Shown here one piece after another: positions 2,616 to 44,962 of a stretch of DNA of 44,962 bases. A model generated the notes under the pieces. That model did not search any database, was not told where the DNA came from, and saw nothing but the letters and a program-made list of their open reading frames with translations. The stretch covers positions 1 through 44,962 of the IMG/VR virus record IMGVR_UViG_3300020171_000010. One strand, 5' to 3'. Every line of letters begins with the position of its first letter. Within the stretch, counting starts at the first letter, position 1. This DNA is from a virus. Position numbers and translations under genes: made by a program.

Positions 2616-2643
2616 TTGACATTTCATTTATTCGTGATATATC
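2616..2643 (+). promoter_or_regulatory. Sigma70-like promoter (putative late/structural operon promoter)
   Basis: TTGACA (2616..2621), a 16-nt spacer containing TG, then TATATC (2638..2643). It lies in a 175-nt intergenic gap upstream of the terminase genes. Confidence 0.6.
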
Positions 2644-2657
2644 TGTATTAGAAAAGC

Positions 2658-2712
2658 AAGGGCGAACAAAATTTAGACTTTCACCTGAGTAATCAGGATT
2701 TTCGGCGCCCTT
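2658..2712 (+). other. Structured 5' leader element
   Basis: AAGGGCG (2658..2664) pairs with CGCCCTT (2706..2712). This stem encloses the hairpin CCTGA-GTAA-TCAGG (2684..2697), which has a GNRA loop. No U-tract follows. Confidence 0.45.
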
Positions 2713-2759
2713 ATGAAAATAATATAAATTAGAATAGATAACGATAATTAAACGAAATT

Positions 2760-3143
2760 ATGCCCAAAAAATTATTTACTTCTGAATACCAACCTAAGAA
2801 GAACGGACGCCATAAGGGTTCTACTGCTACCGATTGGCTCCGCACATTATCCCATACTAAAATTCATTTCCATAATCCCATTACCAACAAGAAAGATTTT
2901 GCAGAAGTCAATCTTGTTGTTGCTATACAATTGATTTTAAAAGCTACACAGGATAGCGATTTGCCTTCAATCAAGGAATATTTTGATAGACTTGACGGCA
3001 AAGTGCCGCAAGAAATCAAAAGTGATAACCTCGGTGGGTTACGCATAATCATAGTTAAAGATGGCGATAAACGAGTGGACAATAAAACCGAAGAAGTTTC
3101 AGGACAGCTTCCTATTCAGCGAAAAAAGATTTCCTTGTCTTAA
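2760..3143 (+). CDS. Putative terminase small subunit (DUF5681-like)
   Basis: The N-terminal F..EYQP.KNGRHKGS motif is typical of DUF5681 proteins found next to phage terminases. The gene sits immediately upstream of the large terminase. Confidence 0.5.
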   Translation: MPKKLFTSEYQPKKNGRHKGSTATDWLRTLSHTKIHFHNPITNKKDFAEVNLVVAIQLILKATQDSDLPSIKEYFDRLDGKVPQEIKSDNLGGLRIIIVKDGDKRVDNKTEEVSGQLPIQRKKISLS

Positions 3144-5374: not shown

Positions 5375-5414
5375 GGCGACTTGGTGAGAAATCATCGGGT
5401 CGCCGTTTTTGTTT
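5375..5414 (+). terminator. Rho-independent terminator
   Basis: GGCGACTTGGTGA-GAAA-TCATCGGGTCGCC forms a 13-bp stem (with G-U pairs) capped by a GNRA loop. It is followed by GTTTTTGTTT. Confidence 0.7.
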
Positions 5415-6004: not shown

Positions 6005-8229
6005 TTAAAGATGAAGTAAAAGAGAAGCCAGAGAAACCTGAATCCACAGAAACCAAACAGGTTGCAGAGATAAAGTTTCAACCCGAATCAGATAAACTCA
6101 GTTCAGAAGAAAAAAAAGAAATCCTGAAGATTGTCAAGGCAGATGTTGAGTATGGTGAAGAAATCCAACTTGATTATGTCAAACAAAAAGAACTTGACCT
6201 CAAACATTACCATTGTGAGAAACCATCTGTCTTGGAAGATTTGCAGAAGAAACCCTGGCACTCTGACCGTAATTTAGGATTATCCCGCGCAATCGCTGAT
6301 TCATACCAGGCCACATTATTAGCCACTTGCTGGAATCCTGACTCAATTCATTATATAGCCACAAACACAATCGAAATAGATAACCGTGTCAATCAGGAGA
6401 AATTTACCAAGTGGGGTATGGGTAAACACGAAGCAAATGTCAAACCTGATATTGATGGGTTCATTCATAACCGTATCGTTGTAGGGGCTTCATTCTGTAA
6501 GATATACCGCAAGACCTGGGAAGAATGGGCTGATAAACGAATCCCCAAGAAGAACAAGAAAGGCGACACTACAGGTTTTGATATCAAGACCGATAAAGTT
6601 AAATTTACTAAAGGCATAATTGAGAACATCCCTGATATTGATGATATCCTTATTCCCGCATACGGCAAAAATGTCCAGGAACTTCCGTTTTTTATCCAGA
6701 TACTCCATTTAGACGGTGAGACAGTATTAGATTATATTGAACGAAAAGTATTTAAACCTGCCAATAAAGAAGAATACAAGAAAAAACTTTATAACCACGC
6801 ATTTGAGGATAAGAAACGCACTCTTGGCGAGGAAAAACTAAAAGCGCAAGGGATAACCGAATCAATGATTAATGATGCCGATGTGCGCAGAATCCCGATA
6901 GATTTATATGAATGGTACGGTTTTTATACCAAGAATAATAAGCGCGAACGGTATCGGTTTATCGTAGATTTAGTCAATGAAGAAGTGTTATCAGGTAAAC
7001 CTGTACGCAAGATTAATAGGTCAGGTAAGATACCATTTGCCGGTGGCGCATTATGCAAAGAACCCGGACAGATTAGAGGCACATCATTAATGCAGTTGAT
7101 AGCGCCGATAGTCAATGCATTTAATAATGTATTCAACCAGAAGTCAGATTTTCAATATGTTACCAACTGCCCGTTTGGATTCCATAACCCAGAGGAAGGA
7201 TACCAGAAACAGACTTATGAACTTGAACCCGGGGTATCATATCCTGTTGGCGGTGAACCTTCACGAAGCGTATATTTCCCGAACTTGCAACGGTCAATGG
7301 CTTGGGCTGAATCAGATATCCGGATATTGCTTGAAGTATTAGAACGGTTAACCGGCGCGGCATCATATTTTGCAATAAGCCAGCAACGGAATAAAACATT
7401 AGGCCAGGATTTATTGGTGGATAAAGCTTCTGAAACCAGGTTTAGTTTATGGGTATCGCGGATACAAGAAGATATAACTGAGGCAATAGGGATGTGGTAT
7501 GAATTATATCAAGACTTCCCGCCAAAAGGGTTAGCGGAACGAGTGGTAGGCGAAAACGGACAAAAACTATTCCCGAACTTATCGGTGAACACATTACGAG
7601 GTGATCCCAATGTTCAGATGACACCGGATACAGTCGCAGGGTCAAAGGCATACAGGAAACAGTTACAGTTATGGGCATTAGAATCTTCTCAAAATTGTAT
7701 ATGGCTCAACCCGCAATTAAACCCTCAAGGCAACTGGAATATGTGGTCTGATGGGTATAAGGAAATATTGGACTTGTCCGATAACGAAGTTGAACGATAT
7801 ATCGGTAAACAACCTAAATCGCAGTTTGATGAGAATGAATTAAATAATGAATGGTATAGATTCTTAAACGGCGAAGAATTTGACCCACCTGAAGGTGAGA
7901 CTGCATTAGCATTACAGCATTTACAGGGGCATATGAAACAGAAGGAAGAAAAATATCATCTACTTGATGAGGAATACAAGCCGAACTTTGATAGTCATTT
8001 ATTCAAGACTACTATAAATTATATGAAATTTATGAAGAATATGCAGAATGAACAGATTGCGGAACGAGTAGCCGCGAATATGATAATGAACCAGGGAGGT
8101 CAACCGCCAATGGGGGCAGGGAATATGCCTGTTCAATCGATGAACGCACAACCTGGCGCACCTGTGGCGCAACCAGGGGCAGTAAAACCGCCTATGCTGG
8201 GTGTGAATCCAGGAGGTCAAGTTGCATAA
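6001..8229 (+). CDS. Portal protein
   Basis: The 742-aa ORF lies between the terminase and the scaffold/capsid genes. It has a low-complexity Q/P/G-rich C-terminal tail. The call is from size and synteny only, with no motif. Confidence 0.7.
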   Translation: MIKDEVKEKPEKPESTETKQVAEIKFQPESDKLSSEEKKEILKIVKADVEYGEEIQLDYVKQKELDLKHYHCEKPSVLEDLQKKPWHSDRNLGLSRAIADSYQATLLATCWNPDSIHYIATNTIEIDNRVNQEKFTKWGMGKHEANVKPDIDGFIHNRIVVGASFCKIYRKTWEEWADKRIPKKNKKGDTTGFDIKTDKVKFTKGIIENIPDIDDILIPAYGKNVQELPFFIQILHLDGETVLDYIERKVFKPANKEEYKKKLYNHAFEDKKRTLGEEKLKAQGITESMINDADVRRIPIDLYEWYGFYTKNNKRERYRFIVDLVNEEVLSGKPVRKINRSGKIPFAGGALCKEPGQIRGTSLMQLIAPIVNAFNNVFNQKSDFQYVTNCPFGFHNPEEGYQKQTYELEPGVSYPVGGEPSRSVYFPNLQRSMAWAESDIRILLEVLERLTGAASYFAISQQRNKTLGQDLLVDKASETRFSLWVSRIQEDITEAIGMWYELYQDFPPKGLAERVVGENGQKLFPNLSVNTLRGDPNVQMTPDTVAGSKAYRKQLQLWALESSQNCIWLNPQLNPQGNWNMWSDGYKEILDLSDNEVERYIGKQPKSQFDENELNNEWYRFLNGEEFDPPEGETALALQHLQGHMKQKEEKYHLLDEEYKPNFDSHLFKTTINYMKFMKNMQNEQIAERVAANMIMNQGGQPPMGAGNMPVQSMNAQPGAPVAQPGAVKPPMLGVNPGGQVA

Positions 8230-8717: not shown

Positions 8718-8811
8718 ATTTTAATACGTTTCCTGTGCTTACGATTAAAGCACTGGTAAAGAGGTTTCTTAATTTATCCTTAAAAATTATGGTTTTAACC
8801 AGGGAGGATTT

Positions 8812-10666: not shown

Positions 10667-11593
10667 ATGACACGCGCAGAATTACTCGATTTGTTTACGC
10701 CAATCTATGACCAGTTTGTCCAGATTGCGGCAGGAGGCGTTGATGTCAAGCATCCACAGTTATTCGATGAGGTGATTGACCCGACTAAGGATTACAAATA
10801 TAACGCTATATCTGGATTAGGAGCATGGGAAGAAGTAACTGAAGATAGCGAAGATGGGTTAGACCATTTCGTTATCGGATACGAAGGCACAATTACACCT
10901 GTTTATCTCCGCAAATACTTCTATGTATCATTTGAAGTAAACGAACAGATGGAATATGCTGCCTTGAAATCAAAGATAGGAAGAGCTGAAGCATTAGGAC
11001 GTGGCGGACAGATAAAACTCGAATTAAAAACCGCAGCAATAATGATTGCCGGATTTACGACTGCTTGTGCGGATGGCCAGATTCTTTACAGCAATTCGCA
11101 TCCCAAGAATCCTGAGGAAACAGCAACGACTTACGACAACTTGTTAGATAGTGCATTTTCTCATGACGCTCTTGAAACGGCAGAGAATCAAATATCAGAG
11201 AATTTCTTTGATATGGATGGTTCACCGATGGCTACTTTTGCAGGCAAACCAAAATTAGTGTTTCCACCTGCATTACGAGGACCGGTTAAAAGAGTTTTAA
11301 GTGAACGCGCAGTTGACCAACCAGGTACTACATTACGCAATATCAATGTTTATTCTGGTGAGTATGATCCTGTGGAATGGGCATATTTGGGTGCAAAATT
11401 AGGCGGCACAAATACCCAATGGCACATTATCTATCCAGGATTAAAGAATCTAAAACTTATCAAGAATAGTGCTGCTCCCCAATACGCATCTTGGATTGAG
11501 AATCTTAAACACAGGTATTACTTTGATGGGTGGCAATATGCAGAAGCAGGTGTAGTGGATTGGAGAGGTTTATTTGCCAGCACTGGAGTTTGA
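10667..11593 (+). CDS. Major capsid protein (HK97-fold expected)
   Basis: 308 aa with a strong AAGGAGGG ribosome-binding site. The call rests on its position after the scaffold and its typical size. Confidence 0.65.
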   Translation: MTRAELLDLFTPIYDQFVQIAAGGVDVKHPQLFDEVIDPTKDYKYNAISGLGAWEEVTEDSEDGLDHFVIGYEGTITPVYLRKYFYVSFEVNEQMEYAALKSKIGRAEALGRGGQIKLELKTAAIMIAGFTTACADGQILYSNSHPKNPEETATTYDNLLDSAFSHDALETAENQISENFFDMDGSPMATFAGKPKLVFPPALRGPVKRVLSERAVDQPGTTLRNINVYSGEYDPVEWAYLGAKLGGTNTQWHIIYPGLKNLKLIKNSAAPQYASWIENLKHRYYFDGWQYAEAGVVDWRGLFASTGV

Positions 11594-11598
11594 TAAAA

Positions 11599-12282
11599 AT
11601 GAATAGAGTTTGTCCATATTGTCATAAGGTTTATACGACTTGGCCCTGTAAATTAAAAAAGGGTTGGATGTTGTATTGTTCAAAACTATGTTCTTCACTT
11701 GCTCGCGGGAAAAGAAAAAAGAATAATTGTGAAATTTGCGGAAAAGAATTTATTTATTACGTGAGTTCACGCAATTCTTCTCGATTTTGTTCTCCAATAT
11801 GTGCTAATAAGAATGCAAGAGGCAAAGAGAAACCATCTATTCAAAAAGAAAATTCTCCGAATTGGAAAGGTGGTCATACTTTGATACAAAAAATCTGTTT
11901 AGATTGCGGTAAAAAGATTTATTATCGGTCTATCAGATGTCATTCTTGTAGTAAAAAGAGTGAATTGCATCCTCATTGGTTAGGAGGAATCGGTAAATTC
12001 CCGTATCCTTTTGAGTTTAATGATGAATTAAAAGATATGATAAGAGCAAGAGATAATTATAATTGTCAACTCTGTGGAATATCAGAAGAAGAGCATATTT
12101 TGATTAAAGGTATGCAACTCCATATTCATCACATTGATTACAATAAAGATAATTGTTTTGAGAATAATCTTATTTCTTTATGCCATCAGTGTCATGCACG
12201 CACTAATTACAATCGTGAACATTGGTCGTATAAACTAAATGATATTATTAGACAAACTAATTTAACCTATAAGGAGATGTAA
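11599..12282 (+). CDS. HNH homing endonuclease (class A: Zn-ribbon/NUMOD-like repeats plus a C-terminal HNH)
   Basis: NYNCQLCG...LHIHHIDYNKDN...NLISLCHQCHARTN, with PNWKGG and HPHWLGG repeats. ATG at 11599 lies just after the capsid stop. The track's 11530 start is an upstream extension. Confidence 0.85.
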   Translation: MNRVCPYCHKVYTTWPCKLKKGWMLYCSKLCSSLARGKRKKNNCEICGKEFIYYVSSRNSSRFCSPICANKNARGKEKPSIQKENSPNWKGGHTLIQKICLDCGKKIYYRSIRCHSCSKKSELHPHWLGGIGKFPYPFEFNDELKDMIRARDNYNCQLCGISEEEHILIKGMQLHIHHIDYNKDNCFENNLISLCHQCHARTNYNREHWSYKLNDIIRQTNLTYKEM

Positions 12283-14467: not shown

Positions 14468-14478
14468 GTAAGAGATAT

Positions 14479-14525
14479 AGATAAGGGGTGGGGGTAATTC
14501 CTCACTCCTTATCTAAATTTATTTT
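14479..14525 (+). terminator. Strong hairpin / terminator-like element
   Basis: AGATAAGGGGTG pairs with CACTCCTTATCT in a stem of about 12-15 bp including G-U pairs. It is followed by AAATTTATTTT. Confidence 0.5.
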
Positions 14526-14529
14526 AAGT

Positions 14530-21155: not shown

Positions 21156-21346
21156 TAGGCAAGAATTATTGTTACTATTTAGAAAAGAATTGTAGATTAA
21201 AAAGTGAGTGCTTATTTATAGATTATTGTCCGCATAAGAAGGCAAGAGAGAATTACGAGGAGAGTCATAAAATAATACCGTAGGAGGGGTGATGGGAATT
21301 GTAAAATTAGAGGATGGAAATATAATTATTGACAAAAGGATATAAT

Positions 21347-21982
21347 ATGCCTTCAGGTATTTATCCACATAAATCAAGAACAGAGGAGACAAAGAGAAAA
21401 ATTAGTAAAGCTATTATGGGACATCCACTATATAACACTGGCAGAACGCATTTTAAGAAAGGCCTTATCCCTTGGAATAAAGATAAAAAATACCCTCAAT
21501 TTTCTAAAGAAAATCATCCTAATTGGGGTAAAAAAGCTTCAGAAGAAACAAGACAAAAATCATCAATTTCTCATAAAGGACAAAAATCTTATATGGAAGG
21601 CAAACATCATACAGAAGAAACAAAGAAAAGATTAAGTGAATACTGGAAGGGGAAGCGAATAGGAACACAACATCCTAATTGGCAAAATGGGAAATCCTTT
21701 GAACCATATTCTTTAGATTTCAATGACGAGTTAAAAGCAGAAATTAGAAAAAGAGATAATTATATTTGCCAGAATTGTAATATGACTGAGGAAGAACATC
21801 TAATTGTTTATGGAGATGTTCTTTATATTCATCATATTAATTACAATAAAAAAGATTCTGATGAAGACAATTTGATAACTTTATGTAATTCTTGCAATGC
21901 AAGAGCAAATTTTAATAGGGATTATTGGAAAAATTATTATTCATCAAAGAGAGTTTGTAATGGGGTCAATCAAAATAAATAA
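21347..21982 (+). CDS. HNH homing endonuclease (class A)
   Basis: NYICQNCN...LYIHHINYNKKD...NLITLCNSCNARAN, with HPNWGKK and HPNWQNG repeats. ATG at 21347; the track's 21329 start is TTG. Confidence 0.85.
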   Translation: MPSGIYPHKSRTEETKRKISKAIMGHPLYNTGRTHFKKGLIPWNKDKKYPQFSKENHPNWGKKASEETRQKSSISHKGQKSYMEGKHHTEETKKRLSEYWKGKRIGTQHPNWQNGKSFEPYSLDFNDELKAEIRKRDNYICQNCNMTEEEHLIVYGDVLYIHHINYNKKDSDEDNLITLCNSCNARANFNRDYWKNYYSSKRVCNGVNQNK

Positions 21983-22291: not shown

Positions 22292-22822
22292 TTATATTTT
22301 TCTTCCATCAAAAACTATTTCCTCTGGTTTAATAATGCCATTTTTTTCAAAACGAAGATGAGCAGAATGATTGATAAAAGCCATAAGCATATGAGGACGA
22401 TTATCATTTTTTTTACCAAGATGATGACCAACCTCTGTCGGTTTAAGATAACGACCAATTTGTTTTTCAATTACAAGATGATGTTCAAAAACATAATGAC
22501 GATTATGAGCAAAAGGATGTTTAGGTTTATAAATAAGAACATAACCATTACTATCAATTTTTTTTCCACCTTTCCAACCAGAACTATTTTCCCCCGACCA
22601 TTGAGGAAGCTTTTTATCTTTATTCCAAGGAATAAATCTTTTATGATTTTTACTCATTTTTTTCTTGGCTTTTTTAGTATGGTGTTTTCCTTTCATCCAC
22701 GGAATATGTCCCTTTTTAAATTCAGTTTTAGGATGATGTCCTTTTTGAAATCCTTGTTTTTTCAGTTGTTCCAAATGTTCTTTTGTTTTTTCAAAAACTC
22801 CCCTTGGCATTTTTGCCTCCAA
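22292..22822 (-). CDS. HNH homing endonuclease (class B, HNH_3-like); the only minus-strand gene
   Basis: NGYVLIYKPKHPFAHNRHYVFEHHLVIEK...EVGHHLGKKNDNRP, with repeated KGH.PW.KGK modules. GGAGGCAAAA ribosome-binding site on the minus strand. Confidence 0.85.
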   Translation of the reverse strand: MEAKMPRGVFEKTKEHLEQLKKQGFQKGHHPKTEFKKGHIPWMKGKHHTKKAKKKMSKNHKRFIPWNKDKKLPQWSGENSSGWKGGKKIDSNGYVLIYKPKHPFAHNRHYVFEHHLVIEKQIGRYLKPTEVGHHLGKKNDNRPHMLMAFINHSAHLRFEKNGIIKPEEIVFDGRKI

Positions 22823-32087: not shown

Positions 32088-32297
32088 ATGAAAGAACTTA
32101 TCAAGCAATTCATTGAGGCAATTATTAAAGAGTGGGTTAAAGCCAGGACAGTATTTACCCTTTTATTTTATATAACTTTTCTATACTTGATATTGAAAAA
32201 AATAGAAGTTCCACCAGAATTGAATACGATTATATCCACACTATTCGGTTTCTGGTTTGGTCAACGGCAATCTAACAAAAAGGAGGAAGTAAAATGA
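32088..32297 (+). CDS. Holin-like protein with two transmembrane segments
   Basis: 69 aa with two hydrophobic segments and a charged C-terminus (QRQSNKKEEVK). Confidence 0.4.
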   Translation: MKELIKQFIEAIIKEWVKARTVFTLLFYITFLYLILKKIEVPPELNTIISTLFGFWFGQRQSNKKEEVK

Positions 32298-32710
32298 AAA
32301 GGATAATGTCAGTTTTAGCATTGATTTTGGCAATGGCAATCCCAGCTATGGCGATGGCTCAGGAAAGTTTATCTATAACCGATATGGTTAAACGGATTCC
32401 GAATCTCAAACAGGGATTTGGTTATTCTTTTATTGACCACGATTTCGGGTATCTTGCCACGGTTGAATTGGCGAAATGGAAAGATATATCGTTTGAAGCC
32501 GGATACAACTGGAAAAATAAGGCAATCGGGGTTATTAGTTATGATTTTTTTAAGTTAAAGGATTTTGGGGTTACATTACCTATCTTAAATTTGGTGGGAT
32601 GTAAATTAGGAGTTTATGCCGGCTATGGCAGGATTGATTTATTACAAGGTGGCGGGAATCAAGAATTTGACTATGGTGCCAGTGCGACTATTTTAGAGAT
32701 AAAATTTTGA
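32294..32710 (+). CDS. Small outer-membrane beta-barrel-like protein
   Basis: Signal peptide MKRIMSVLALILAMAIPAMAMA|QE. The body has alternating amphipathic strands. The C-terminus ...ATILEIKF resembles an outer-membrane-protein beta-signal ending in Phe. Confidence 0.5.
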   Translation: MKRIMSVLALILAMAIPAMAMAQESLSITDMVKRIPNLKQGFGYSFIDHDFGYLATVELAKWKDISFEAGYNWKNKAIGVISYDFFKLKDFGVTLPILNLVGCKLGVYAGYGRIDLLQGGGNQEFDYGASATILEIKF

Positions 32711-32718
32711 GGTGAAAG

Positions 32719-33030
32719 ATGGTTACTAATATTGTCCAACCGGTTAAACACGCAATATTTCGTGCCTTCTCAGTATTTTGTGTTTTCTTGGTAATTGGTT
32801 TGCTTGGTTTGGGAGTTAAACGACTATTGTATCCACCCAAAACCGAAAGTTATGCTCAGACTATTCAAGCGGGCGGGGTGAATTACAATATTGAAATTTA
32901 TAATCCCCAAGATACATTTTTTCTCGGTCTGCATATTTTCGGGTTTAAGTTAGGCATTACTAAACCGACAGTCAAGAAGATAAACGATATTACTGCGGAA
33001 TTAAAACCTATTCAACCGGTGAAGAAATGA
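32719..33030 (+). CDS. Signal-anchored membrane protein
   Basis: 103 aa with a single N-terminal transmembrane segment, FSVFCVFLVIGLLGLGV. Confidence 0.5.
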   Translation: MVTNIVQPVKHAIFRAFSVFCVFLVIGLLGLGVKRLLYPPKTESYAQTIQAGGVNYNIEIYNPQDTFFLGLHIFGFKLGITKPTVKKINDITAELKPIQPVKK

Positions 33031-33084
33031 TTAAGCATACACTTTTGTTAATTATCTTGGCTTGTATAAATATATAAAATAACT

Positions 33085-33112
33085 TGATATTCATATCCAC
33101 CAATGCTATACT
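33085..33112 (+). promoter_or_regulatory. Sigma70-like promoter upstream of an HNH gene
   Basis: TTGATA-16 nt-TATACT, 20 nt upstream of the AAAGGAGGA ribosome-binding site. Confidence 0.5.
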
Positions 33113-33131
33113 TATTATAGTAAAGGAGGAT

Positions 33132-33707
33132 ATGATGAAAAAGAAATGTTTATGGTGTGGAAAAGAAATACAAACTTGCAGATGTTTAAAGGATAGAAAA
33201 AAATTTTGTTCTAAAGAATGTTTATATAATTTTAAAAAAGGAAAGCATTATTCTCTCAAAACAGAATTTAAAAGAGGCGAACATCCTTCTCCGAAAACTG
33301 AATTTAAAAAAGGCGATAATCTTGGTAAAAATCATCCTCGCTGGAAAGGTGGTCGCCATAAATTAAAAACAGGATATATTCAAATATATGCCCTTGGACA
33401 TCCAAGAGCTTATAAGAATTTTGTATATGAACATATACTTATTGCCGAAAAAAAATTAGGCAGATATTTATTAACTAATGAAGTCGTTCACCATCTTAAT
33501 GGCATTAAAGATGACAACAGGGAAGAAAATATAGTGGTTTGTCAAAGCGATAAAGAACATTTTAAAAATCATAGATTAAAAACTTGGTCAAGAAAATATG
33601 ATAGATGTAGAAAGTGTGGAACAACAAAAATAAAACATGAGGCAAGAGGACTTTGCCAAAATTGTTATAAATATTACCAAAATCATAAAAAATTATGCGA
33701 ATATTGA
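33132..33707 (+). CDS. HNH homing endonuclease (class B, HNH_3-like)
   Basis: TGYIQIYALGHPRAYKNFVYEHILIAEK...EVVHHLNGIKDDNREENI, with the HPRWKGG repeat and Zn-ribbon CxxC pairs. Paralogous to the gene at 22292..22822. Confidence 0.85.
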   Translation: MMKKKCLWCGKEIQTCRCLKDRKKFCSKECLYNFKKGKHYSLKTEFKRGEHPSPKTEFKKGDNLGKNHPRWKGGRHKLKTGYIQIYALGHPRAYKNFVYEHILIAEKKLGRYLLTNEVVHHLNGIKDDNREENIVVCQSDKEHFKNHRLKTWSRKYDRCRKCGTTKIKHEARGLCQNCYKYYQNHKKLCEY

Positions 33708-34156
33708 TTTTTATATTTTTAACAATATTGAGTTCAATTTTTTACAGACTCGGCGGAATAGGAAAACCTTATCCTGTTAAAATAAGGGATGGCGGTTGTC
33801 CTTTAGTTGCCCTTACCTTGCTATGGTTATTAGGTAGTTCGGGGCTACAAGGGGTATTTCTGCTTAAAATAGGGCTATTCTTGGTTACTTATGGGCTAAT
33901 GTTTGCCAGTTTGACTACCTATTGGAAAAAGGGTGTAGACGCTAAAGCGATTAACTGGTTTTTCCACGGTTTTGGCGTAGGGATATCTTGCTTACCTTTA
34001 ACTTGGTTAGGGATCGACTGGTGGTTAATTCTTGCCCGGGCCGTTATACTCGGTATAACAATGATGTGGTGGTCAGAAAACAATGATGATGTCCTTTGGG
34101 AAGAAGGCGGCCGTGGCGCCTTAATAATCCTCACTTTGCCTGTTTTGCTAACCTAA
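33695..34156 (+). CDS. Polytopic membrane protein (about 5 transmembrane segments)
   Basis: 153 aa, strongly hydrophobic. No family recognised. Confidence 0.55.
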   Translation: MRILIFIFLTILSSIFYRLGGIGKPYPVKIRDGGCPLVALTLLWLLGSSGLQGVFLLKIGLFLVTYGLMFASLTTYWKKGVDAKAINWFFHGFGVGISCLPLTWLGIDWWLILARAVILGITMMWWSENNDDVLWEEGGRGALIILTLPVLLT

Positions 34157-34157
34157 A

Positions 34158-34565
34158 ATGAGATTCAAACCTTATTGGCAGGATAAGATAAAAAAGATGA
34201 GAAGAAATAACGAAGAACAACGATTGCAAGAATGGTTTGCCTTGTGGCTTAATAGTAAGAATATATTATTTAACGCCTCAATGGCTGGGGTTAATCTTGG
34301 GATAGCAACAGCAAAAGCCCGCAAACAAATGGGTGCAAAGGCAGGATTCCCTGATATATTTATTTATGAACCAAGGGGTGGTTTCAATGGTATGGCGATT
34401 GAATTAAAAGCGAAAGGTGGCACAATGACCAATGAACAAACGGATTGGTCAAATCGCCTTACTGATAAAAAATATTATTCTTTGATTATGTCTGGCAAAC
34501 TTAAATTCTACGAAGCGCAGAAATACTTAGAAAAAGTTACTACGGAATATCTTTCCTTGAAATAA
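34158..34565 (+). CDS. VRR-NUC domain nuclease
   Basis: GFPDIFIYEP...AIELKAKGGTMTNEQTDW contains the PD-(D/E)xK D...ExK core and the Q..W of VRR-NUC. Confidence 0.8.
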   Translation: MRFKPYWQDKIKKMRRNNEEQRLQEWFALWLNSKNILFNASMAGVNLGIATAKARKQMGAKAGFPDIFIYEPRGGFNGMAIELKAKGGTMTNEQTDWSNRLTDKKYYSLIMSGKLKFYEAQKYLEKVTTEYLSLK

Positions 34566-34569
34566 GTCC

Positions 34570-34598
34570 TTGACAAATTCGATTTTATAGATTATACT
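34570..34598 (+). promoter_or_regulatory. Consensus sigma70-like promoter (putative early promoter)
   Basis: TTGACA (34570..34575), a 17-nt spacer, then TATACT (34593..34598). It sits at the start of the largest non-coding gap. Confidence 0.7.
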
Positions 34599-34604
34599 TT
34601 TATT

Positions 34605-34729
34605 GTAATTAGATAGAAAGGAAAAAGTGAATATCCAGATAGGCGGTGATAATAGATTTAAAGGCGAAGTTAAGGCGAAAGCCTTAGACCGATTCACCGT
34701 CGGCCTGGAGCTTCGCCTTTTTTATTTTT
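34605..34729 (+). ncRNA. Candidate promoter-proximal structured small RNA (~125 nt), unclassified
   Basis: It is bounded by the promoter and a terminator. The outer helix is AAAGGCGAAG/CTTCGCCTTT, enclosing AAGGC-GAAA-GCCTT (GNRA loop). An alternative CGGTGA/TCACCG pairing is possible. No convincing ORF. Confidence 0.5.
34660..34729 (+). terminator. Rho-independent terminator with a branched stem
   Basis: A 10-bp helix (34660..34669 with 34711..34720) is followed by TTTTATTTTT. Confidence 0.65.
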
Positions 34730-34999
34730 AGCATCCATACAAAGATAAACACCCTTAACTGGTAATACTAACCTGGGCAGTCTTAGGATGCAAAGTCTAA
34801 CAGAAAACCTTAAAACCGAGAACTCATTCGACGAGGGCTTAATGTTCTCAAAATTCAGCGTTCATCCAGAAATCCTCAATGCAGGGACACTGTGTAGTGG
34901 CGTAAGCCAGGGGTAGCTGTTAGTAAGGCAATGTTTATCGTCAAAATAAAAATACCCTAAAGGGGCTTCCTTTACCTTAAATCTATTCTCTGAGGGCTT
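34730..34999 (+). other. Non-coding region of unknown function (structured RNA, origin or regulatory)
   Basis: Hairpins are GCATCC/GGATGC (34731/34785), GAGAAC/GTTCTC (34818/34843) and TGGC-GTAA-GCCA (34898..34909). Long-range complementarity to 34648..34662 lies near 34968..34986. GAGGGCTTA(A)TG occurs twice. Confidence 0.3.
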
Positions 35000-35173
35000 A
35001 TGAATAAACAAAACTTAATAATTAAAATCGCCTCAATTCTTTTAAAACAAGAAGTGCCACATTGGCGTTGGGAAGTAGCAAATTCTGCTCTAAAAGCAAG
35101 GTATTTGGAACAGGCGGAAGATTTATATGAGATTTTTGTTAATGAAGAAGTTTTAATTAACCAAAAGGAGTAA
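35000..35173 (+). CDS. Hypothetical small protein (57 aa)
   Basis: Hand-translated MNKQNLIIKIASILLKQEVPHWRWEVANSALKARYLEQAEDLYEIF... with a GAGGG ribosome-binding site. Not in the ORF track. Confidence 0.45.
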   Translation: MNKQNLIIKIASILLKQEVPHWRWEVANSALKARYLEQAEDLYEIFVNEEVLINQKE

Positions 35174-35176
35174 CCA

Positions 35177-35383
35177 ATGGATATTAAAAAAGAGTTTGAT
35201 GTAGTCGCTAAAGCATTACGAGAAGATGAATCTTTTTATTATGGTTGGCAATCAAATATAGCAATGGCGTTTGTTGATGTATTAACAAATGCGGGATACG
35301 ATTTTCCTGATAGAAACATATTAGCAAATAGGGCGGCAAAAAACTTTCTGGATTTATTGATAAAAGAGAAAAAAATATCTTAA
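35177..35383 (+). CDS. Hypothetical protein
   Basis: 68-aa ORF with an AAGGAG ribosome-binding site. Confidence 0.55.
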   Translation: MDIKKEFDVVAKALREDESFYYGWQSNIAMAFVDVLTNAGYDFPDRNILANRAAKNFLDLLIKEKKIS

Positions 35384-35444
35384 TTCTTTTCCAGGGGCAA
35401 AGTATTTTTAAATCCTCGTCGCTGTGGAGGTCTTAAAATAGTTA

Positions 35445-35473
35445 TTGACAAATGGTATATTATAGTATAAACT
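35445..35473 (+). promoter_or_regulatory. Sigma70-like promoter
   Basis: TTGACA at 35445..35450 with downstream TGGTATATT (extended -10-like) and TATAAA/TAAACT candidates. It shares AATGGTATATT with the promoter at 42128. Confidence 0.5.
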
Positions 35474-35482
35474 TATACCAAG

Positions 35483-35647
35483 ATGAAAAAAGAGAAGATT
35501 TATAAAGCCAAACTACATATTGAAATCCCCGAAAGATACCACGATTTATTAGTAGAAATAAAAGACGATACAGGTATTTCATTTAATAAATTGGTATCAA
35601 GGGCAATAAGAAACTTTCTAAAGGCAAAATTATATATAGTGGATTAA
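35483..35647 (+). CDS. Ribbon-helix-helix (Arc/CopG-like) DNA-binding protein
   Basis: Hand-translated MKKEKIYKAKLHIEIPERYHDLLVEIKDDTGISFNKLVSRAIRNFLKAKLYIVD, a beta-strand/helix/helix pattern. Not in the ORF track. Confidence 0.65.
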   Translation: MKKEKIYKAKLHIEIPERYHDLLVEIKDDTGISFNKLVSRAIRNFLKAKLYIVD

Positions 35648-35649
35648 CT

Positions 35650-36261
35650 ATGCCTAAATTCCTGCGCATCAAACATAAAAATAACCCCCGCTGTTCAAAA
35701 CTCAGATTATTTTGGATGAGAGTCCTTTTAAGTCTGGGTTTTTTTCTTTGCGCGCAGGCAGAGGCAGCGGGGCCTAAATCAACTAATCCCTTACCTGCGG
35801 ATAATTCTGACCCAAGTGTCCAATCAAATCCTCGCACCTTGCGGGGCCCATTAGACACCTCCTTTTTACAGGCGAAAAAAAAGATGCCTGGCTATTCGCG
35901 GGTAGGGGTTATTGATTTAGACATAATCGCCACCATCGAATCATCAAACAATCCTATGGCGTATAATCCCAAAAGTGGGGCAAGAGGATTGTATCAGATT
36001 ACCCCGATTTGTCTAAAAGATTACAATAGCCAAAATACCCCCCAAATCGCCCCTACACGCCTTTTTGACCCCTTTATCAATAAACAGGTGGCTAAATGGT
36101 ATTTAACGCAACGTATACCCCTATTCTTGCGAAATAAAGGCATTCCTATAACGGTTGCCAACATTCTTTGGTGCTATAACGCAGGGATAGGTAATCTATT
36201 AAAAAGAAAAATACCAAAAGAAACCAGGGATTATATTGCTAAATACAGGAGATTACAATGA
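35650..36261 (+). CDS. Secreted lytic transglycosylase (SLT domain)
   Basis: Signal-like N-terminus ...MRVLLSLGFFLCAQAEAAG. SLT motifs are IESSNNP (catalytic E-S), GLYQIT and CYNAGIGN. Confidence 0.85.
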   Translation: MPKFLRIKHKNNPRCSKLRLFWMRVLLSLGFFLCAQAEAAGPKSTNPLPADNSDPSVQSNPRTLRGPLDTSFLQAKKKMPGYSRVGVIDLDIIATIESSNNPMAYNPKSGARGLYQITPICLKDYNSQNTPQIAPTRLFDPFINKQVAKWYLTQRIPLFLRNKGIPITVANILWCYNAGIGNLLKRKIPKETRDYIAKYRRLQ

Positions 36262-36416
36262 CCGCCCATACTGAACTTGAAAAGATTTGCAAAAATATTG
36301 ACCGCAAGGCGCGCAGACTCAGGCGACTTCGCAAAGTTAGAGGCGAACCATTATCGCTGGGGATGACCGAGAGGATAATGGAGGGATATAAATCAGGAAA
36401 GAATATGGGGGATTGA
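36258..36416 (+). CDS. Hypothetical small basic protein (52 aa)
   Basis: Hand-translated MTAHTELEKICKNIDRKARRLRRLRKVRGEPLSLG..., with an ATGA overlap upstream. Confidence 0.4.
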   Translation: MTAHTELEKICKNIDRKARRLRRLRKVRGEPLSLGMTERIMEGYKSGKNMGD

Positions 36417-36418
36417 GG

Positions 36419-36598
36419 ATGACTATATATAAAATTTCTTTATTGATATTAGTTGACCGTGAATGGAAATGGGTTAAAGACGCTTATGATTATCTTGATA
36501 GAATTTTTCATTATTTCAAACAATCAAAAGCGATAGAGGATTATAGATTATTAAAAGTTTATAAATTTAAAAGAAAAAGGAAATTAGCAAATGTCTAA
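36419..36598 (+). CDS. Hypothetical protein
   Basis: ORF 36413..36598. ATG at 36419 follows GGGGGATTGAGG. Confidence 0.45.
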   Translation: MTIYKISLLILVDREWKWVKDAYDYLDRIFHYFKQSKAIEDYRLLKVYKFKRKRKLANV

Positions 36599-36773
36599 CC
36601 TCATCCCCGTAACTTATCTCGGCAAGCAGTCAGGGTTTAATATCGTAACTGATTTTTATTTAGTCAATATGCAGGATGGGCGGACGGTCAAATATCATCC
36701 TGAATTGCATAATATTGTGGGGATGGATAAACGGTGCAAAGAGAAAGAAATACCAAATCTAAAAAGAAAGTGA
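36591..36773 (+). CDS. Hypothetical protein
   Basis: 60-aa ORF with an 8-nt overlap upstream. Confidence 0.45.
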   Translation: MSNLIPVTYLGKQSGFNIVTDFYLVNMQDGRTVKYHPELHNIVGMDKRCKEKEIPNLKRK

Positions 36774-36781
36774 GGTGAAAT

Positions 36782-36964
36782 TTGGCAAGATATTGTTGCC
36801 GCAAGAATAAAAAGGTAAGTATCAAAAAAGCTAATGAATATTGCATTTTACATCGTTGCCCTGAGTTAATGGTTAATAGGCCGGTAATTGAACGAGGGAG
36901 ATTAAAACATATCCAAGTGCCGGTAGTATTAGAAACTTTGATTGATAATAATTTCAGTTGCTAA
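36782..36964 (+). CDS. Hypothetical protein (TTG start)
   Basis: 60-aa ORF with GAGGTGAAAT upstream of the TTG. Confidence 0.35.
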   Translation: MARYCCRKNKKVSIKKANEYCILHRCPELMVNRPVIERGRLKHIQVPVVLETLIDNNFSC

Positions 36965-36980
36965 AAAGGAGATGATTAAA

Positions 36981-37733
36981 ATGAAGAATAAGGCGGTAGT
37001 TATTAAAAATAGAGAACCGAGAGAAGTAATTGTTGTGGATAATTCTCCTGCAGGAATGATACGAACGGCGGTTGCGGGTGGTGCTGATTTGGATAAATTG
37101 GAGAAATTGCTTACCTTGCAAGAAAGGTTTGAGGCGAACGAGGCTAAAAAGGCATATACACAAGCATTATCCGCCTTTAAGTGTGAGGTACCGGATGTTA
37201 AACGTGATAAAAAGAATAAACAATACGATAGCACCTATGTATCAAAAGGCAACCTCATCAAAACCATAACCCCGATTTTAAGCAAATTTGGGTTATCTGC
37301 TAATTTCTCTTATAAGAATTTGCCTGAAAACTTTGTAGAGGTAGCTTGTCGTTTAACTCATCAGCGGGGGCATAGTGAAGAAACATCTTTTTCTGCTCCG
37401 GCGGATATTTCTGGCTCAAAAAATCCTATACAGCAATTAAAATCTACAATAACTTATTTGGAAAAAATTACCTTTGCTGGGATTTTAGGGATAGAATCCA
37501 CTGAAGAAGTTGATGATGATGGGCGAGGTTCGGCGCCGGCTGAGTTGATAGACAAAAAACAGTTAAGTCAGTTGCTTGATATATTAAGCGAAATCAAAGG
37601 TGATCCTCTTGAAAATCTACAAAAATTCCGGGTATACCTAAAACTTGAAAAACTGGAAGATATGCTTAAAACCGATTTTCAGAAAGCTGTTAATGCGTTG
37701 GAAGCCAAAAGAAAAGCACAGGGGAAAGTATGA
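36981..37733 (+). CDS. erf: ERF-family single-strand annealing protein
   Basis: KKAYTQALSAFKCEV...YDSTYVSKGNLIKTITPILSKFGLS...CRLTHQRGHSEE...STITYLEKITFAGILGI matches the ERF pattern (..YA.L..i......L...Gl / GSA.TYa.RY....LlGI). Start chosen at the ATG 6-7 nt after AAGGAG. Confidence 0.75.
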   Translation: MKNKAVVIKNREPREVIVVDNSPAGMIRTAVAGGADLDKLEKLLTLQERFEANEAKKAYTQALSAFKCEVPDVKRDKKNKQYDSTYVSKGNLIKTITPILSKFGLSANFSYKNLPENFVEVACRLTHQRGHSEETSFSAPADISGSKNPIQQLKSTITYLEKITFAGILGIESTEEVDDDGRGSAPAELIDKKQLSQLLDILSEIKGDPLENLQKFRVYLKLEKLEDMLKTDFQKAVNALEAKRKAQGKV

Positions 37734-39141: not shown

Positions 39142-39218
39142 TATGCTATTTATGCGGAGAAGAAACCAATATAAAAGAAACCGATTATGAAGATCGTAAT
39201 TATCTAAAAATATGTTGA
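39138..39218 (+). pseudogene. Possible truncated zinc-ribbon gene fragment (26 aa)
   Basis: Hand-translated MICYLCGEETNIKETDYEDRNYLKIC. It resembles the start of ORF 40104..40289 (IICWYCKKEFEY...Y.D) on the other side of the HNH gene. Confidence 0.25.
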
Positions 39219-40153
39219 TAAATCCAAATAACTATGATACAATTTTAGGCAGTGAGAGGGAAGTGGATTTTTTATTGCCTAAAACACGGACGCAAAGTAG
39301 GCTTGAAAAGTTTAACCACTTTTCTCTCACGGCTGAAATGCGTCCTTTTTATTTGGCGAAAGAAATGAAGCTTTGTTTAGATTGTGGCAAAAAACTTAAA
39401 GATTATAGGTCAATTAGATGTAGGTCTTGTTCTAAAAAAAAGTTATTTCAAAATCGAGAAAAAACTCCTAATTGGAAAGGTGGAAAACCTAAATGCATAG
39501 TTTGTAAAAAAATATTAAAATCATATACATCTAGTAAATGTTCAAAATGTGCAAAATTGGGAATTACTTTTAGTGATGAACGTAGGAATAAAATTAAGCA
39601 ATCCTTACAAAGAACTATCAAGGAAAGAGGAAGTTGGGGTTTTCAAAATGGACATTTGCCTTGGAATACTGGTAAAAAAAGACCAAAGATGAGTGGGGAT
39701 AAACATCCTAATTGGAAAGGTGGAGATTTAGAAAAAAATTGTAAAGAATGCGGGAAAGTATTTTATAGCAAACATTCTTATATTAACAGAGGTTACTTTT
39801 GCACAAGAAAATGTTTTATTAAATGGAAAATTAAGAACTCACCTAAAAAAGAAAAACATTATAATTGGAAAGGAGGAATAACACCTGAAATAAACAAAAG
39901 AACAAGTTCTCTTAAATGGAAAACAATTAGAAATATGGTTTATGAAAGAGATGTTTGGAAATGTCAAATATGCAACAAACATTGTGATAAAGATATTCAA
40001 TGCCATCATATTATCCCTTATAGAATTTCTTATAATGATGATTTTAAAAATCTAGTAACTCTTTGTAAAGCTTGTCATATAAAAGAAGAAAGAAATTACC
40101 CTAATGGCAAATTCACACAAGATCATTTGTTGGTATTGCAAAAAAGAATTTGA
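39212..40153 (+). CDS. HNH homing endonuclease (class A)
   Basis: VWKCQICN...IQCHHIIPY...NLVTLCKACHIKEE, with three (T/H)(P/Y)NWKGG repeats. LDCGKKLKDYRSIRCRSCSKK is paralogous to the gene at 11599..12282. The N-terminal ~50 aa are uncertain. Confidence 0.8.
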   Translation: MLINPNNYDTILGSEREVDFLLPKTRTQSRLEKFNHFSLTAEMRPFYLAKEMKLCLDCGKKLKDYRSIRCRSCSKKKLFQNREKTPNWKGGKPKCIVCKKILKSYTSSKCSKCAKLGITFSDERRNKIKQSLQRTIKERGSWGFQNGHLPWNTGKKRPKMSGDKHPNWKGGDLEKNCKECGKVFYSKHSYINRGYFCTRKCFIKWKIKNSPKKEKHYNWKGGITPEINKRTSSLKWKTIRNMVYERDVWKCQICNKHCDKDIQCHHIIPYRISYNDDFKNLVTLCKACHIKEERNYPNGKFTQDHLLVLQKRI

Positions 40154-42127: not shown

Positions 42128-42156
42128 TTGACAGGGAATTTTAATAATGGTATATT
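42128..42156 (+). promoter_or_regulatory. Consensus sigma70-like promoter
   Basis: TTGACA (42128..42133), a 17-nt spacer ending in TG-G, then TATATT (42151..42156). Confidence 0.65.
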
Positions 42157-42211
42157 GAGTATAACTTAGGGTGAGGTAAAATATGAGGGGTAAAATGTTA
42201 AACAGAAAAAC

Positions 42212-42246
42212 AAAAGGCTCGACGGAAAACCGATTGAGTCTTTTTT
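42212..42246 (+). terminator. Rho-independent terminator/attenuator in a promoter-proximal leader
   Basis: AAAAGGCTC..CGG-AAAA-CCG..GAGTC followed by TTTTTT. Confidence 0.55.
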
Positions 42247-42251
42247 ATTGC

Positions 42252-42322
42252 CTGCCCCTATCGAAGCAACCAGCCCTAAGCTGGTCTCTCATCTTTGGCT
42301 TTGGTGGGGGCAGTGCCTTTTT
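42252..42322 (+). other. Second structured element in the leader
   Basis: CTGCCCC (42252..42258) pairs with GGGGCAG (42307..42313). The stem encloses the hairpin CCAGC-CCTAA-GCTGG (42270..42284). A T5 run starts 4 nt downstream. Confidence 0.35.
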
Positions 42323-42333
42323 AAGGGGCAATA

Positions 42334-42627
42334 ATGGCAAATTATTCAAATAAACTAAGGAATGATTTATTAAAAGAAACTAATTATAAATGTTCCTATT
42401 GTGGTAATGACTTAAATAATATTTATGAAATTGAACACTTTATCCCTAAATCGCAGGGGGGAACAGGGAAAAGAAAAAACCTTACTGTTAGTTGCAGAAA
42501 ATGTAATATTGCCAAACTCGATTATTCTTTAGAAAAATTTAAGCAACGAATAAAGGTTAAAACATTTTACTATGAAAAAATTGGATTATCGAAAGGGGAA
42601 ATCTATGGCAAACCGTTTTACAGATAG
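42334..42627 (+). CDS. HNH endonuclease (class C, short)
   Basis: CSYCGNDL...EIEHFIPKSQGG...NLTVSCRKCNIAK. Confidence 0.85.
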   Translation: MANYSNKLRNDLLKETNYKCSYCGNDLNNIYEIEHFIPKSQGGTGKRKNLTVSCRKCNIAKLDYSLEKFKQRIKVKTFYYEKIGLSKGEIYGKPFYR

Positions 42628-43384
42628 CCGCAAATGGGATGATCCTTGGTTTAGAAAATTACCTTGTAAATATAAAGCATTTTTTATATTTTTACTTGAT
42701 AAATGCGACCATGCTGGGATATGGAAAATAGATTTTGAAAGCGCGGAGTTTCATATAGGTGAAAAACTTGATAAAAATGAAATTTTAGGCATAATGAACA
42801 GCCGGATTATAGAACTAAAAGAAAAGTGGTTTATACCAAAGTTTATAAACTTCCAATATCAAGTTTCTTCAATCACAGAATTAAATCCTGAAAATAGAGT
42901 TCATAAGTCAGTTATTGAATTATTAAAGAAAGAAGGGGCTTTAAAGGGGCTTAAATTACCCTTACAAGGGTGTAAGGACAAGGATATGGATATGGTTAAA
43001 GATAAGGATAAGGATAAGGATGATAAAGGGGTTGTTAAGGGGGGATATTTAGAAAACAAGGAGTTTGAGATTGCTTTCAATAATTTCCTTATTATGCGCC
43101 AAGAAAAAAAGAAACCGGCTACAAAACGCGCTCGAGAGATTATTCTAACCAAACTCCATAAATTTGATATTGAAATAGCAATTAAGATGTTAGAGCAATC
43201 AACAGTTAACTCCTGGACAGATGTTTATGAATTAAAAAATAAAATTGAAAGTAACCTAACTAAACAACAAAGAAGCAATTTACAAGGATTAAATAAGACA
43301 ATAGAAAGGATTAAGAATGATAAGCGAGGCGTTTCAGAAAGGGTATCTGGCTTTAGCGGCCGCCTTCCCGGGACTACAATTTAA
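42605..43384 (+). CDS. Putative replication initiation / replisome organiser protein
   Basis: The N-terminus MANRFTDSRKWDDPWFRKLPCKYKAFFIFLLDKCDHAGIW is typical of phage replisome-organiser-like proteins. It has a KD-repeat linker. ATG at 42605 follows AAGGGGA. Confidence 0.5.
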   Translation: MANRFTDSRKWDDPWFRKLPCKYKAFFIFLLDKCDHAGIWKIDFESAEFHIGEKLDKNEILGIMNSRIIELKEKWFIPKFINFQYQVSSITELNPENRVHKSVIELLKKEGALKGLKLPLQGCKDKDMDMVKDKDKDKDDKGVVKGGYLENKEFEIAFNNFLIMRQEKKKPATKRAREIILTKLHKFDIEIAIKMLEQSTVNSWTDVYELKNKIESNLTKQQRSNLQGLNKTIERIKNDKRGVSERVSGFSGRLPGTTI

Positions 43385-44842: not shown

Positions 44843-44962
44843 ATGAAATAGTGAAGTCTATTACTGATATTATTATTAATTTTTTTCTTTTAGAAAAGAG
44901 TTGGGCAAAATTATTTTATATCATTAGTCCAAAAGATGAGAAAGTGATAAGAAAGTTAGCCT
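44839..44962 (+). CDS. 5' part of the junction-spanning ORF (continues at 113..180 of the circle)
   Basis: ATG at 44839 follows GGAGGAGAG and overlaps the upstream stop (ATGA). The frame is open to the window end. Confidence 0.6.
   Translation, partial: MNEIVKSITDIIINFFLLEKSWAKLFYIISPKDEKVIRKLA
44851..44962. repeat. Terminal direct repeat, copy 2
   Basis: Identical to 1..112. Confidence 0.95.

Follow-up and report, generated by a model that had tools for sequence, protein, structure and literature searches.

A predicted promoter-proximal terminator and short structured RNA in the largest noncoding gap of a metagenomic phage genome

The gap and its promoter-to-terminator unit

The 44,962-nt window analysed here (positions 1–44,962 of IMG/VR virus record IMGVR_UViG_3300020171_000010) is a complete phage genome of 44.85 kb in a circular assembly, in which bases 1–112 are repeated at 44851–44962. 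Its G+C content is ~36%, nearly all genes lie on the + strand, that is to say, the genome is unidirectional, and no tRNA gene was found in the whole window. The longest noncoding stretch on the + strand, at a cut-off of 45 aa for open reading frames (ORFs), is a 434-nt gap between a VRR-NUC nuclease gene and two small ORFs, ORF57 and ORF68 (Table 1); the runner-up measures 175 nt. The initial annotation had recognized this gap as the largest of the genome and had described it as a promoter, a terminated structured RNA of ~125 nt, and a further 270 nt of hairpin-rich sequence. The Logan assembly L049 (related loci are designated by L and a number), which stems from a separate run, is 100% identical to the window across 34168–35390; therefore, an assembly artefact is excluded for the gap. 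The positions at which the Logan unitig breaks (34168 and 35390) hint that VRR-NUC, the gap, and ORF57/ORF68 travel together as one module.

The promoter sequence at the left end of the gap matches the sigma-70 consensus at 11 of 12 positions with the ideal 17-nt spacing, and it is the best + strand site in 33000–37000. Transcription is inferred to start near 34605–34607; a −10-like hexamer, TATTGT, was seen by eye at 34601. Genome-wide, 3 promoter-like matches of at least 11/12 were observed on the + strand, versus a mean of 1.3 in random genomes. Only three matches of this quality end in T at the last −10 position (34570 and 42128 on the + strand, 22955 on the − strand), and all three are intergenic and stand directly upstream of the transcription unit that they face. 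The support for the 34570 promoter thus comes from its placement, not from its score. In two of the three (34570 and 42128), the next 60–120 nt or so contain a terminator. Strong + strand terminators are rare (about 4–8 in 45 kb), and we estimate the chance of two of three promoters having such near terminators at well below 1%.

The sequence that follows the promoter folds into a stable structure. The segment 34605–34735 reached −40 kcal/mol, compared with −26.2 ± 3.3 kcal/mol in dinucleotide shuffles (z = −4.2, none of 200 shuffles being as good); the z value was weaker (−2.3) for the opposite strand, −3.4 for the terminator part alone (81 nt, −28.2 kcal/mol), and not beyond chance (−1.3) for the whole gap. 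In the predicted structure, two adjacent hairpins (P2 and P3) are enclosed by the terminator's own stem (P1), and the U-run follows immediately. The annotated reading of a promoter and a terminated ~125-nt RNA agrees with the two hexamers and the distance between them, with a fold better than chance, and with a canonical hairpin that leads into a U-run. The individual motifs on which that reading was built were also recovered at the coordinates given for them, namely the promoter hexamers, the outer helix, the AAGGC-GAAA-GCCTT hairpin, the CGGTGA/TCACCG pairing, the T-run, and a TGGC-GTAA-GCCA hairpin further downstream (34898–34909). The DNA pattern of the gap element is AAGGCGAAAGCCTT...TTCGCCTTTTTT.

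Two low-energy folds were obtained. Fold 1, the three-way junction, has an energy of −29.1 kcal/mol over 34605–34722; fold 2, an extended imperfect hairpin with the GAAA hairpin at its tip, pairs 34621–34649 with 34694–34722 and has an energy of −35.3 kcal/mol. The CGGTGA/TCACCG pairing (GGCGGTGA/TCACCGTC, 34644–34649/34694–34699) lies within a 28-nt inverted repeat that is 71% complementary, and the helix to which it belongs (helix A, 34642–34649/34694–34701) interleaves with P1, which implies that the two helices either combine into a pseudoknot topology or exclude each other. Both folds stop directly at the U-run; therefore, termination is expected whichever of them forms. For the same reason, the pairing that the initial annotation had called competing is no convincing antiterminator, and we rejected a riboswitch-like switch.

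On this sequence evidence, we give an even chance to the reading that the left 160 nt of the gap are a real, self-contained short transcription unit, which would yield a terminated ~120-nt RNA or an attenuated leader gating ORF57/ORF68. We infer that the promoter fires and that the terminator functions, as follows. The host sigma-70 RNA polymerase would start at the promoter and transcribe ~120 nt, which would fold as a stable branched hairpin and end in a strong intrinsic terminator that consists of a G+C-rich 12-bp stem and a UUUUUUAUUUUU tail. The default product would be the terminated RNA. Because only polymerases that escape the terminator would reach the 270-nt spacer and ORF57/ORF68, the unit would be a promoter-proximal gate (attenuator) as well as a source of a small RNA.

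Table 1. Positions of the predicted elements of the gap, of its neighbouring genes, and of related features in the window
Feature	Position	Strand	Description
Gap	34566–34999		Followed by ORF57 and ORF68
Putative sigma-70-type promoter	34570–34598	+	TTGACA-17-TATACT; begins 4 nt past the VRR-NUC stop codon
Predicted short transcript	34605–34729	+	~121–125 nt, putative start to U-run
34-codon GTG ORF	34627–34731	+	AAAGGA at 34617–34622, 5 nt upstream; TAG at 34729–34731, inside the U-run
Fold 2 pairing (predicted)	34627–34649 with 34694–34716	+	GUGAA, UCCAG, GGCGGUGA with UCACCGUC, CUGGA, UUCGC
A/U-rich stretch	34648–34661	+	GAUAAUAGAUUUAA; complement of 34977–34990
Predicted three-way-junction terminator	34660–34720	+	P1 + P2 + P3
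P1 outer helix	34660–34669/34711–34720		AAAGGCGAAG/CTTCGCCTTT; perfect 10-mer, extends to 12 bp (34660–34671/34709–34720), G+C-rich
P2 hairpin	34673–34684	+	AGGC-GAAA-GCCU; AAGGC-GAAA-GCCTT spans 34672–34685
P3 hairpin	34685–34707	+	
U-run	34718–34729	+	TTTTTTATTTTT; immediately 3′ of P1
Spacer or 5′ untranslated region	34730–34976	+	No detectable structure, repeats, or homologs
42-codon ORF	34788–34916	+	24-codon version from ATG 34842, after GAGGGCTTA
Complement of the A/U-rich stretch	34977–34990	+	UUAAAUCUAUUCUC; stops 1 nt before the GAGGG Shine–Dalgarno sequence (34992–34996) of ORF57
ORF57	35000–35173	+	First downstream gene
ORF68	35177–35383	+	Conserved WQSNIAMAFVD...AAKNFLDLLIK domain, uncharacterised family
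Early promoter and ribbon-helix-helix (RHH) regulator gene	35445–35647	+	TTGACA-17-TAAACT; near-leaderless 54-aa gene at 35483–35647
Second unit	42128–42322	+	TTGACA-17-TATATT; leader with an ORF led by a Shine–Dalgarno sequence; terminators T1 (42216–42248) and large-loop T2 (42250–42322)
Portal-like protein and other structural genes	Until ~31960		
Small membrane proteins	32088–33030		
HNH endonuclease	33084–33707		
153-aa membrane protein			Between the HNH endonuclease and VRR-NUC
VRR-NUC nuclease (PF08774)	34158–34565		Directly upstream of the gap
SLT-domain protein, Erf, exonuclease, further HNH genes, Dam-like methylase, two GroES-like genes			After the RHH gene
HNH-type genes	11530–12282, 21329–21982, 22292–22822 (−), 33084–33707, 39212–40153, 42334–42627		

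Recurrence of the promoter-then-terminator design

The window contains a second unit of the same design at 42128. Its T1 is a hairpin followed by CTTTTTTATT, and downstream lie an HNH gene and then the 270-aa gene w_42572 (42572–43384). Positional equivalents were found in L013 (13139–13332) and L007 (14074–14208), where promoter, T1, and T2 stand directly upstream of the w_42572 homologs; the order of promoter and terminator is kept by position, not by sequence. This recurrence suggests that promoter-proximal termination is a regulatory habit of the phage group, which comprises largely uncharacterised ~40–46-kb unidirectional phages from groundwater-type metagenomes. Exactly one ORF with a Shine–Dalgarno (SD) sequence and a start codon spans the terminator or terminators in each unit whose leader is of sufficient length (window 34627 and 42183, L013 13217, and L029 46); no such ORF spans any of 4 control terminators that lack a promoter before them.

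Very strong terminators also occur inside the structural/late block, at 5375–5412 (−22 kcal/mol) and 14478–14526 (−26.5 kcal/mol), and neither is followed by a promoter-like site. Read-through control must therefore exist in this phage; regulated read-through or deliberate dosage steps would explain these late-block terminators. It is a rather doubtful extension of these observations that the phage group times its genes by promoter-proximal terminators spanned by SD-led leader ORFs, the 34570 unit in addition freeing a small RNA that represses ORF57. In such a scheme, passage beyond each strong early-type promoter would be licensed by a coupled ribosome or an antiterminator.

The T2 of the tandem terminators has a loop of 35–50 nt, and the complete stretches occupy 42128–42333 in the window, 13139–13343 in L013, and 14074–14218 in L007. 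In the window, the HNH gene is inserted between the terminators of the 42128 unit and w_42572. L029 (54–155) and L041 (10177–10263, also L042–L045) carry a further element composed of CTGTGAG, (C)CCGCAAGG or GGGCAAG, a small terminator hairpin with a T-run, CTCACAG, and CCTTGCGGG or CTTGCCC, that is to say, two helices interleaved around an intrinsic terminator. The second helix has two compensatory positions between L029 and L041, and L041 has a third CTGTGAG, which overlaps the SD of the gene that follows. No CTGTGAG/CTCACAG motif is present in the window; its element at 34642–34720 shares the interleaved topology. Interleaved-helix terminators with a pseudoknot topology (window 34642–34720, L029 54–155, and L041 10178–10263) might represent a new class of riboregulators.

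Possible control of ORF57/ORF68 and comparison with known systems

Two routes, which are not exclusive of each other, could control the passage from the 34570 promoter to ORF57/ORF68. In route (a), ribosome coupling, a ribosome on the SD-led 34-codon ORF would track the polymerase and suppress the terminator hairpin. In route (b), RNA pairing, the A/U-rich stretch of the RNA would pair with its complement beside the ORF57 SD and lower translation in cis or in trans. Complementarity between the small RNA and the right end of the gap had been pointed out in the initial annotation and holds for 34648–34661 (GATAATAGATTTAA) and 34977–34990 (TTAAATCTATTCTC), which are complementary at 13 of 14 nt. 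Nucleotides 34650–34664, which include most of the complementary sequence in the RNA, are unpaired in both folds. A trans target in the phage genome was also sought and was rejected: the best duplex (−33.6 kcal/mol, at 8186–8210) was equalled or bettered by 1 of 25 shuffled RNAs. This site, at the 3′ end of the portal-like gene, comprises AUAGGCGGU plus CCAG and, with one bulge, complements that 5′ portion of the candidate RNA which is left unpaired.

Route (a) follows the model of the Escherichia coli pyrBI operon, which is controlled by a ribosome-coupled attenuator. As in pyrBI, an SD-led leader ORF continues across the terminator hairpin, and three other units of the phage group have this layout too. 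The gap differs in that (i) no nucleotide-sensing U-rich pause region was identified and (ii) its ORF starts with GTG behind a weak SD, is not conserved, and stops at the very end of the U-run.

Route (b) recalls the c4 RNA of phages P1 and P7, which in P1 acts on icd, and the CI RNA of P4; both are immunity RNAs whose target lies further downstream in the transcription unit that encodes them. The candidate RNA of the gap would likewise be encoded 5′ of ORF57, and its complement ends 1 nt before the SD. By contrast, (i) the gap has a single complementary pair of marginal significance, (ii) its RNA would arise by termination rather than by RNase P/E processing, and (iii) its next gene has no known antirepressor or toxic role, and there is no sequence similarity.

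The layout also resembles that of phage lambda, in which the strong constitutive sigma-70 promoter PR′ is followed within ~100–200 nt by the intrinsic terminator tR′, the 6S RNA is produced between them, and late control depends on Q. In both cases, a promoter is closely followed by an intrinsic terminator, a short RNA is (in the gap, would be) the default product, and downstream genes need read-through. The differences are that (i) the gap is preceded by VRR-NUC instead of a Q-like gene; (ii) it precedes two small ORFs and the early block (RHH, SLT, Erf, and exonuclease) instead of lysis or structural genes; and (iii) for a qut site or a sigma-dependent, promoter-proximal pause element it offers only −10-like hexamers recognized by eye, and the genome holds at least two such units.

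In tailed phages, autonomous promoter-gene-terminator cassettes are known as morons. The gap unit resembles a moron in having its own promoter and terminator, in its mosaic region, in its absence from relatives, and in its atypical composition. However, it has no accessory protein gene between promoter and terminator and would instead deliver an RNA, or a peptide of 34 aa with a coding sequence that is mostly terminator. The gap unit resembles known systems in layout and belongs to no sequence-defined family.

If active, the unit would provide a regulatory small RNA or an attenuator for a lineage of phages in which hardly any genes are annotated and no member is in culture, and together with the conserved units of the 42128 type it would suggest that these phages time their genes by termination control. 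It would also mark ORF57/ORF68 as genes under tight, separate control and offers two clean promoter/terminator pairs. At present, it is of modest value as one orphan candidate among many in phage intergenic DNA.

Orphan status and evidence against the unit

A search of Rfam 15 at the gathering threshold, which was proposed in the initial annotation as a check for a known family, returned 0 matches over the whole window and nothing relevant in 12 related loci. A permissive scan gave sub-threshold alignments to STnc40 (RF02057; 24.7 versus 45 bits) and DUF2693 RNA (RF02956; 17.6 versus 81.3 bits), with E values of 0.17–0.66 that are attributable to the tiny search space. The STnc40 alignment covers the AAAGGCG...CGCCUUUUUU terminator of the gap but needs a 40-nt loop insertion. 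The DUF2693 RNA alignment takes in the TTGACA box, AAGUGA-UA-CCA-AU, the 8-bp closing helix, and a single inner hairpin; two parts of the model, its first hairpin and another inner hairpin, are non-pairing or deleted in the gap, so that the gap departs from the model structure. A single-sequence covariance model of the three-way junction, run over 261 kb, had its best foreign match (21 bits, E = 0.1) inside a gene.

Relatives were also traced through the neighbouring genes. VRR-NUC has only five relatives, with at most 61% identity and differing gene contexts, and the ORF68 homologs also lie in unrelated gene contexts. Erf relatives are many, on 40–46-kb contigs with the same unidirectional layout (67%–73% identity in L007, L011, and L013). 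The closest relative, L029, is 88%–97% identical in patches and begins just right of the gap, and the relatives of the RHH cluster (L040–L045) have only the promoter-RHH module in common with the window. The raw samples with this phage comprise SRR6976411 and JGI Ga0180732, the latter containing L029. Lack of conservation among relatives, which the initial annotation had named as refuting, formally applies to the relatives obtained, but these lack the whole module rather than carrying a drifted copy; for this reason, the result is to be read as "orphan" and not as "unconstrained". L049, the only other copy of the element, is identical and hence offers no variation for covariation analysis.

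Two candidates for a related gap were rejected. A decayed lambda-like late region beside VRR-NUC was considered for the 630-nt gap that follows VRR-NUC in L003, but this gap has no similarity and a different composition. The equally long 434-nt "gap" of L040 proved false and contains an uncalled zinc-ribbon gene; a zinc-ribbon protein of ~55 aa (IP-D/E-DIYC...RKIQCGRFF.CP.C.G) is encoded upstream of the promoter-RHH module in L040 (9720–9890) and L041 (9773–9940).

Several results weigh against a real promoter-to-terminator unit: (i) no homolog of the gap was found by blastn in 50,697 GenBank phage records, nor by nhmmer, blastn, or the covariance model in 49 related loci, and an exact 27-mer of the element had no match in IMG/VR; (ii) the Erf relatives (67%–75% identical) lack the element, their late genes leading to the promoter-RHH module directly or via other genes; (iii) the number of 11/12 promoter matches is at the expectation for random AT-rich sequence, 34% of random genomes holding at least 2; (iv) no promoter is predicted between the strong terminator and ORF57, so that only substantial read-through would explain the expression of ORF57/ORF68; (v) in the leader ORF, the start codon is GTG, the SD is weak, and 20 of the 34 codons fall within the terminator structure; and (vi) the long-range complement is a single pair noticed post hoc and only marginally significant, a perfect 11-nt inverted repeat like 34651–34661/34977–34987 arising in 3% of gap shuffles.

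Alternative explanations

Four other explanations were weighed, each of which is less supported than a promoter-to-terminator unit. The first is that promoter and terminator are chance neighbours, the terminator ending the rightward HNH/VRR-NUC operon, the hexamers being non-functional or weak, and no functional discrete RNA being made. L013 indeed has a terminator (8761–8788) just before its early promoter, the gap terminator is the first strong one on the + strand after 14478, and both the random-level promoter count and the relatives that lack the element fit this explanation. However, the order here is promoter then terminator, not the reverse, and this arrangement is repeated in the 42128 unit as well as in L013 and L007. 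In addition, the spacing is ideal and the hexamers are exactly intergenic, and the structure extends further 5′ than a terminator needs, z being −4.2 for 131 nt versus −3.4 for 81 nt. We consider chance neighbourhood unlikely.

The second explanation, which we hold to be improbable, is that the gap codes for protein, either as a moron-like cassette for the 34-aa peptide or through a small gene at 34788/34842–34916. The 34-codon ORF, which extends across the entire terminator, may encode a leader peptide or may be incidental. It is preceded by AAAGGA at 5 nt, and its score in a 3-periodic Markov test (0.12 bits/codon in frame; −0.7 and −1.3 in the other two frames) was similar to that of true small genes in the genome; however, this test is lenient, since any open frame outscores neighbouring frames that contain stops, and 61 of the 105 nt of the ORF are terminator structure. 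The exact 9-mer GAGGGCTTA stands before ATG 34842 and ATG 35000 and occurs elsewhere in the genome only with a mismatch, as expected from the initiation context that had been noted for a 24-aa micro-ORF; a 16-nt direct repeat around the 9-mer is, by our estimate, about at chance level. Against this micro-ORF, the 42- and 24-codon versions had coding scores of ~0 and no credible homologs. Among 5.8 billion proteins, no homolog was found for the 34-, 42-, or 57-aa ORF (the last being ORF57), and ORF68 alone was matched. With regard to coding ALTERNATIVES, a full phmmer search with the 42-aa ORF returned only tandem-repeat proteins, an artefact that arises because one weak match of 27 residues is added up over as many as 12 repeats.

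The third explanation is a riboswitch-like or factor-dependent antitermination leader comparable to lambda Q/qut, lambda N/nut, or HK022 put, in which alternative folds would decide on read-through. In HK022, two stem-loops just past an early promoter make the polymerase resistant to terminators in cis. The two interleaved helices of the gap, its two adjacent hairpins just past an early-type promoter, which the terminator's own stem encloses, the need of the phage to read through internal terminators somewhere, and the −10-like TATAAC (42160) 3 nt past the −10 hexamer of the 42128 unit are in line with such a leader. On the other hand, both folds end at the U-run without a clear antiterminator, no riboswitch or leader family matched, the upstream gene encodes a VRR-NUC nuclease and not a Q-like protein, the downstream genes are not late genes, and, by inspection, no boxA/boxB-like motif is common to the 34570 and 42128 leaders. 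These points make an antitermination leader quite improbable, and termination by default from the 34570 promoter is the reading that we retain.

In the right 270 nt of the gap, folding of 34730–34999 was at the level of the shuffles (z = +0.37, 123 of 200 equally good); therefore, the GTAA hairpin and its neighbours are no more than chance, and the annotated hairpin-rich character did not hold up. The spacer has a G+C content of 41%–43% and a locally negative GC skew, for which reason foreign or decayed DNA is preferred over a replication origin, and we best read the 270 nt as a leader or spacer of such origin and not as a structured RNA. A decayed gene was rejected since tblastn with the six HNH proteins and the ORF68-family proteins was negative, and stop-codon reassignment was rejected since all three frames are broken by all three stop codons. 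A packaging RNA of the phi29 type (RF00044), which goes with a small genome and protein-primed replication, was also rejected, the genome having no Rfam match, a length of 44.85 kb, and a large terminase of the common type (3061–4350). The fourth explanation, a cis-acting DNA site, namely the replication origin or packaging site named in the initial annotation or the physical genome ends, is highly improbable: the gap is the largest noncoding stretch of a unidirectional, circularly assembling genome, has a few short repeats (CAGAAAHCCTYAA twice and ACCTTAAA twice), and is locally atypical in GC content and skew, but it holds no iterons or tandem repeats beyond chance, is GC-enriched instead of AT-rich, shows no turn in a cumulative GC skew that climbs monotonically, lies 13 kb from the terminase genes (2585–4350), which have their own 175-nt gap upstream, and has no comparable gap at this position in relatives.

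The shared early module and other features of the genome

At the start of their early region, relatives have a near-consensus promoter that drives a nearly leaderless RHH protein of ~45–50 aa. The corresponding module of the window (35434–35656) is 83%–86% identical in DNA to L040, L041, and L042, with unrelated flanks; a search with its DNA pattern returned nothing in IMG/VR and only unrelated matches in GTDB genomes. Because the shared early start of the relatives corresponds to 35445–35647, the gap is not itself the late/early switch. The initial annotation, which had placed the late/early boundary in the gap, was approximately right; the early promoter common to relatives lies at 35445, outside the gap. 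By this comparison, the gap, ORF57, and ORF68 precede the early start common to relatives and are part of a mosaic accessory block with holin-like, HNH, and VRR-NUC genes. The ATG of the RHH gene lies ~10 nt past the −10 hexamer, which would give a near-leaderless mRNA, and GGTATA...TATACC repeats of operator-like appearance overlap the promoter.

ORF57 and ORF68 share a reading frame and are split by a single TAA (TAA-CCA). The homologs P0129–P0131 are single longer proteins, and their alignment crosses the stop. This arrangement suggests that ORF57/ORF68 may be one gene that was split or is expressed by read-through; on the other hand, an AAGGAG SD precedes ORF68 itself.

Two GroES/Cpn10-like genes closely precede the terminase genes, at 1812–2108 (weak) and 2282–2584 (a clear Pfam match, E = 2.9e−30). 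The six HNH-type endonuclease genes have a common repeat that encodes PNWKGG, and several of them have their own promoter-like site. One of the six is the only sizeable gene on the minus strand, where TTGACA-16-TATACT stands at 22955 (−).

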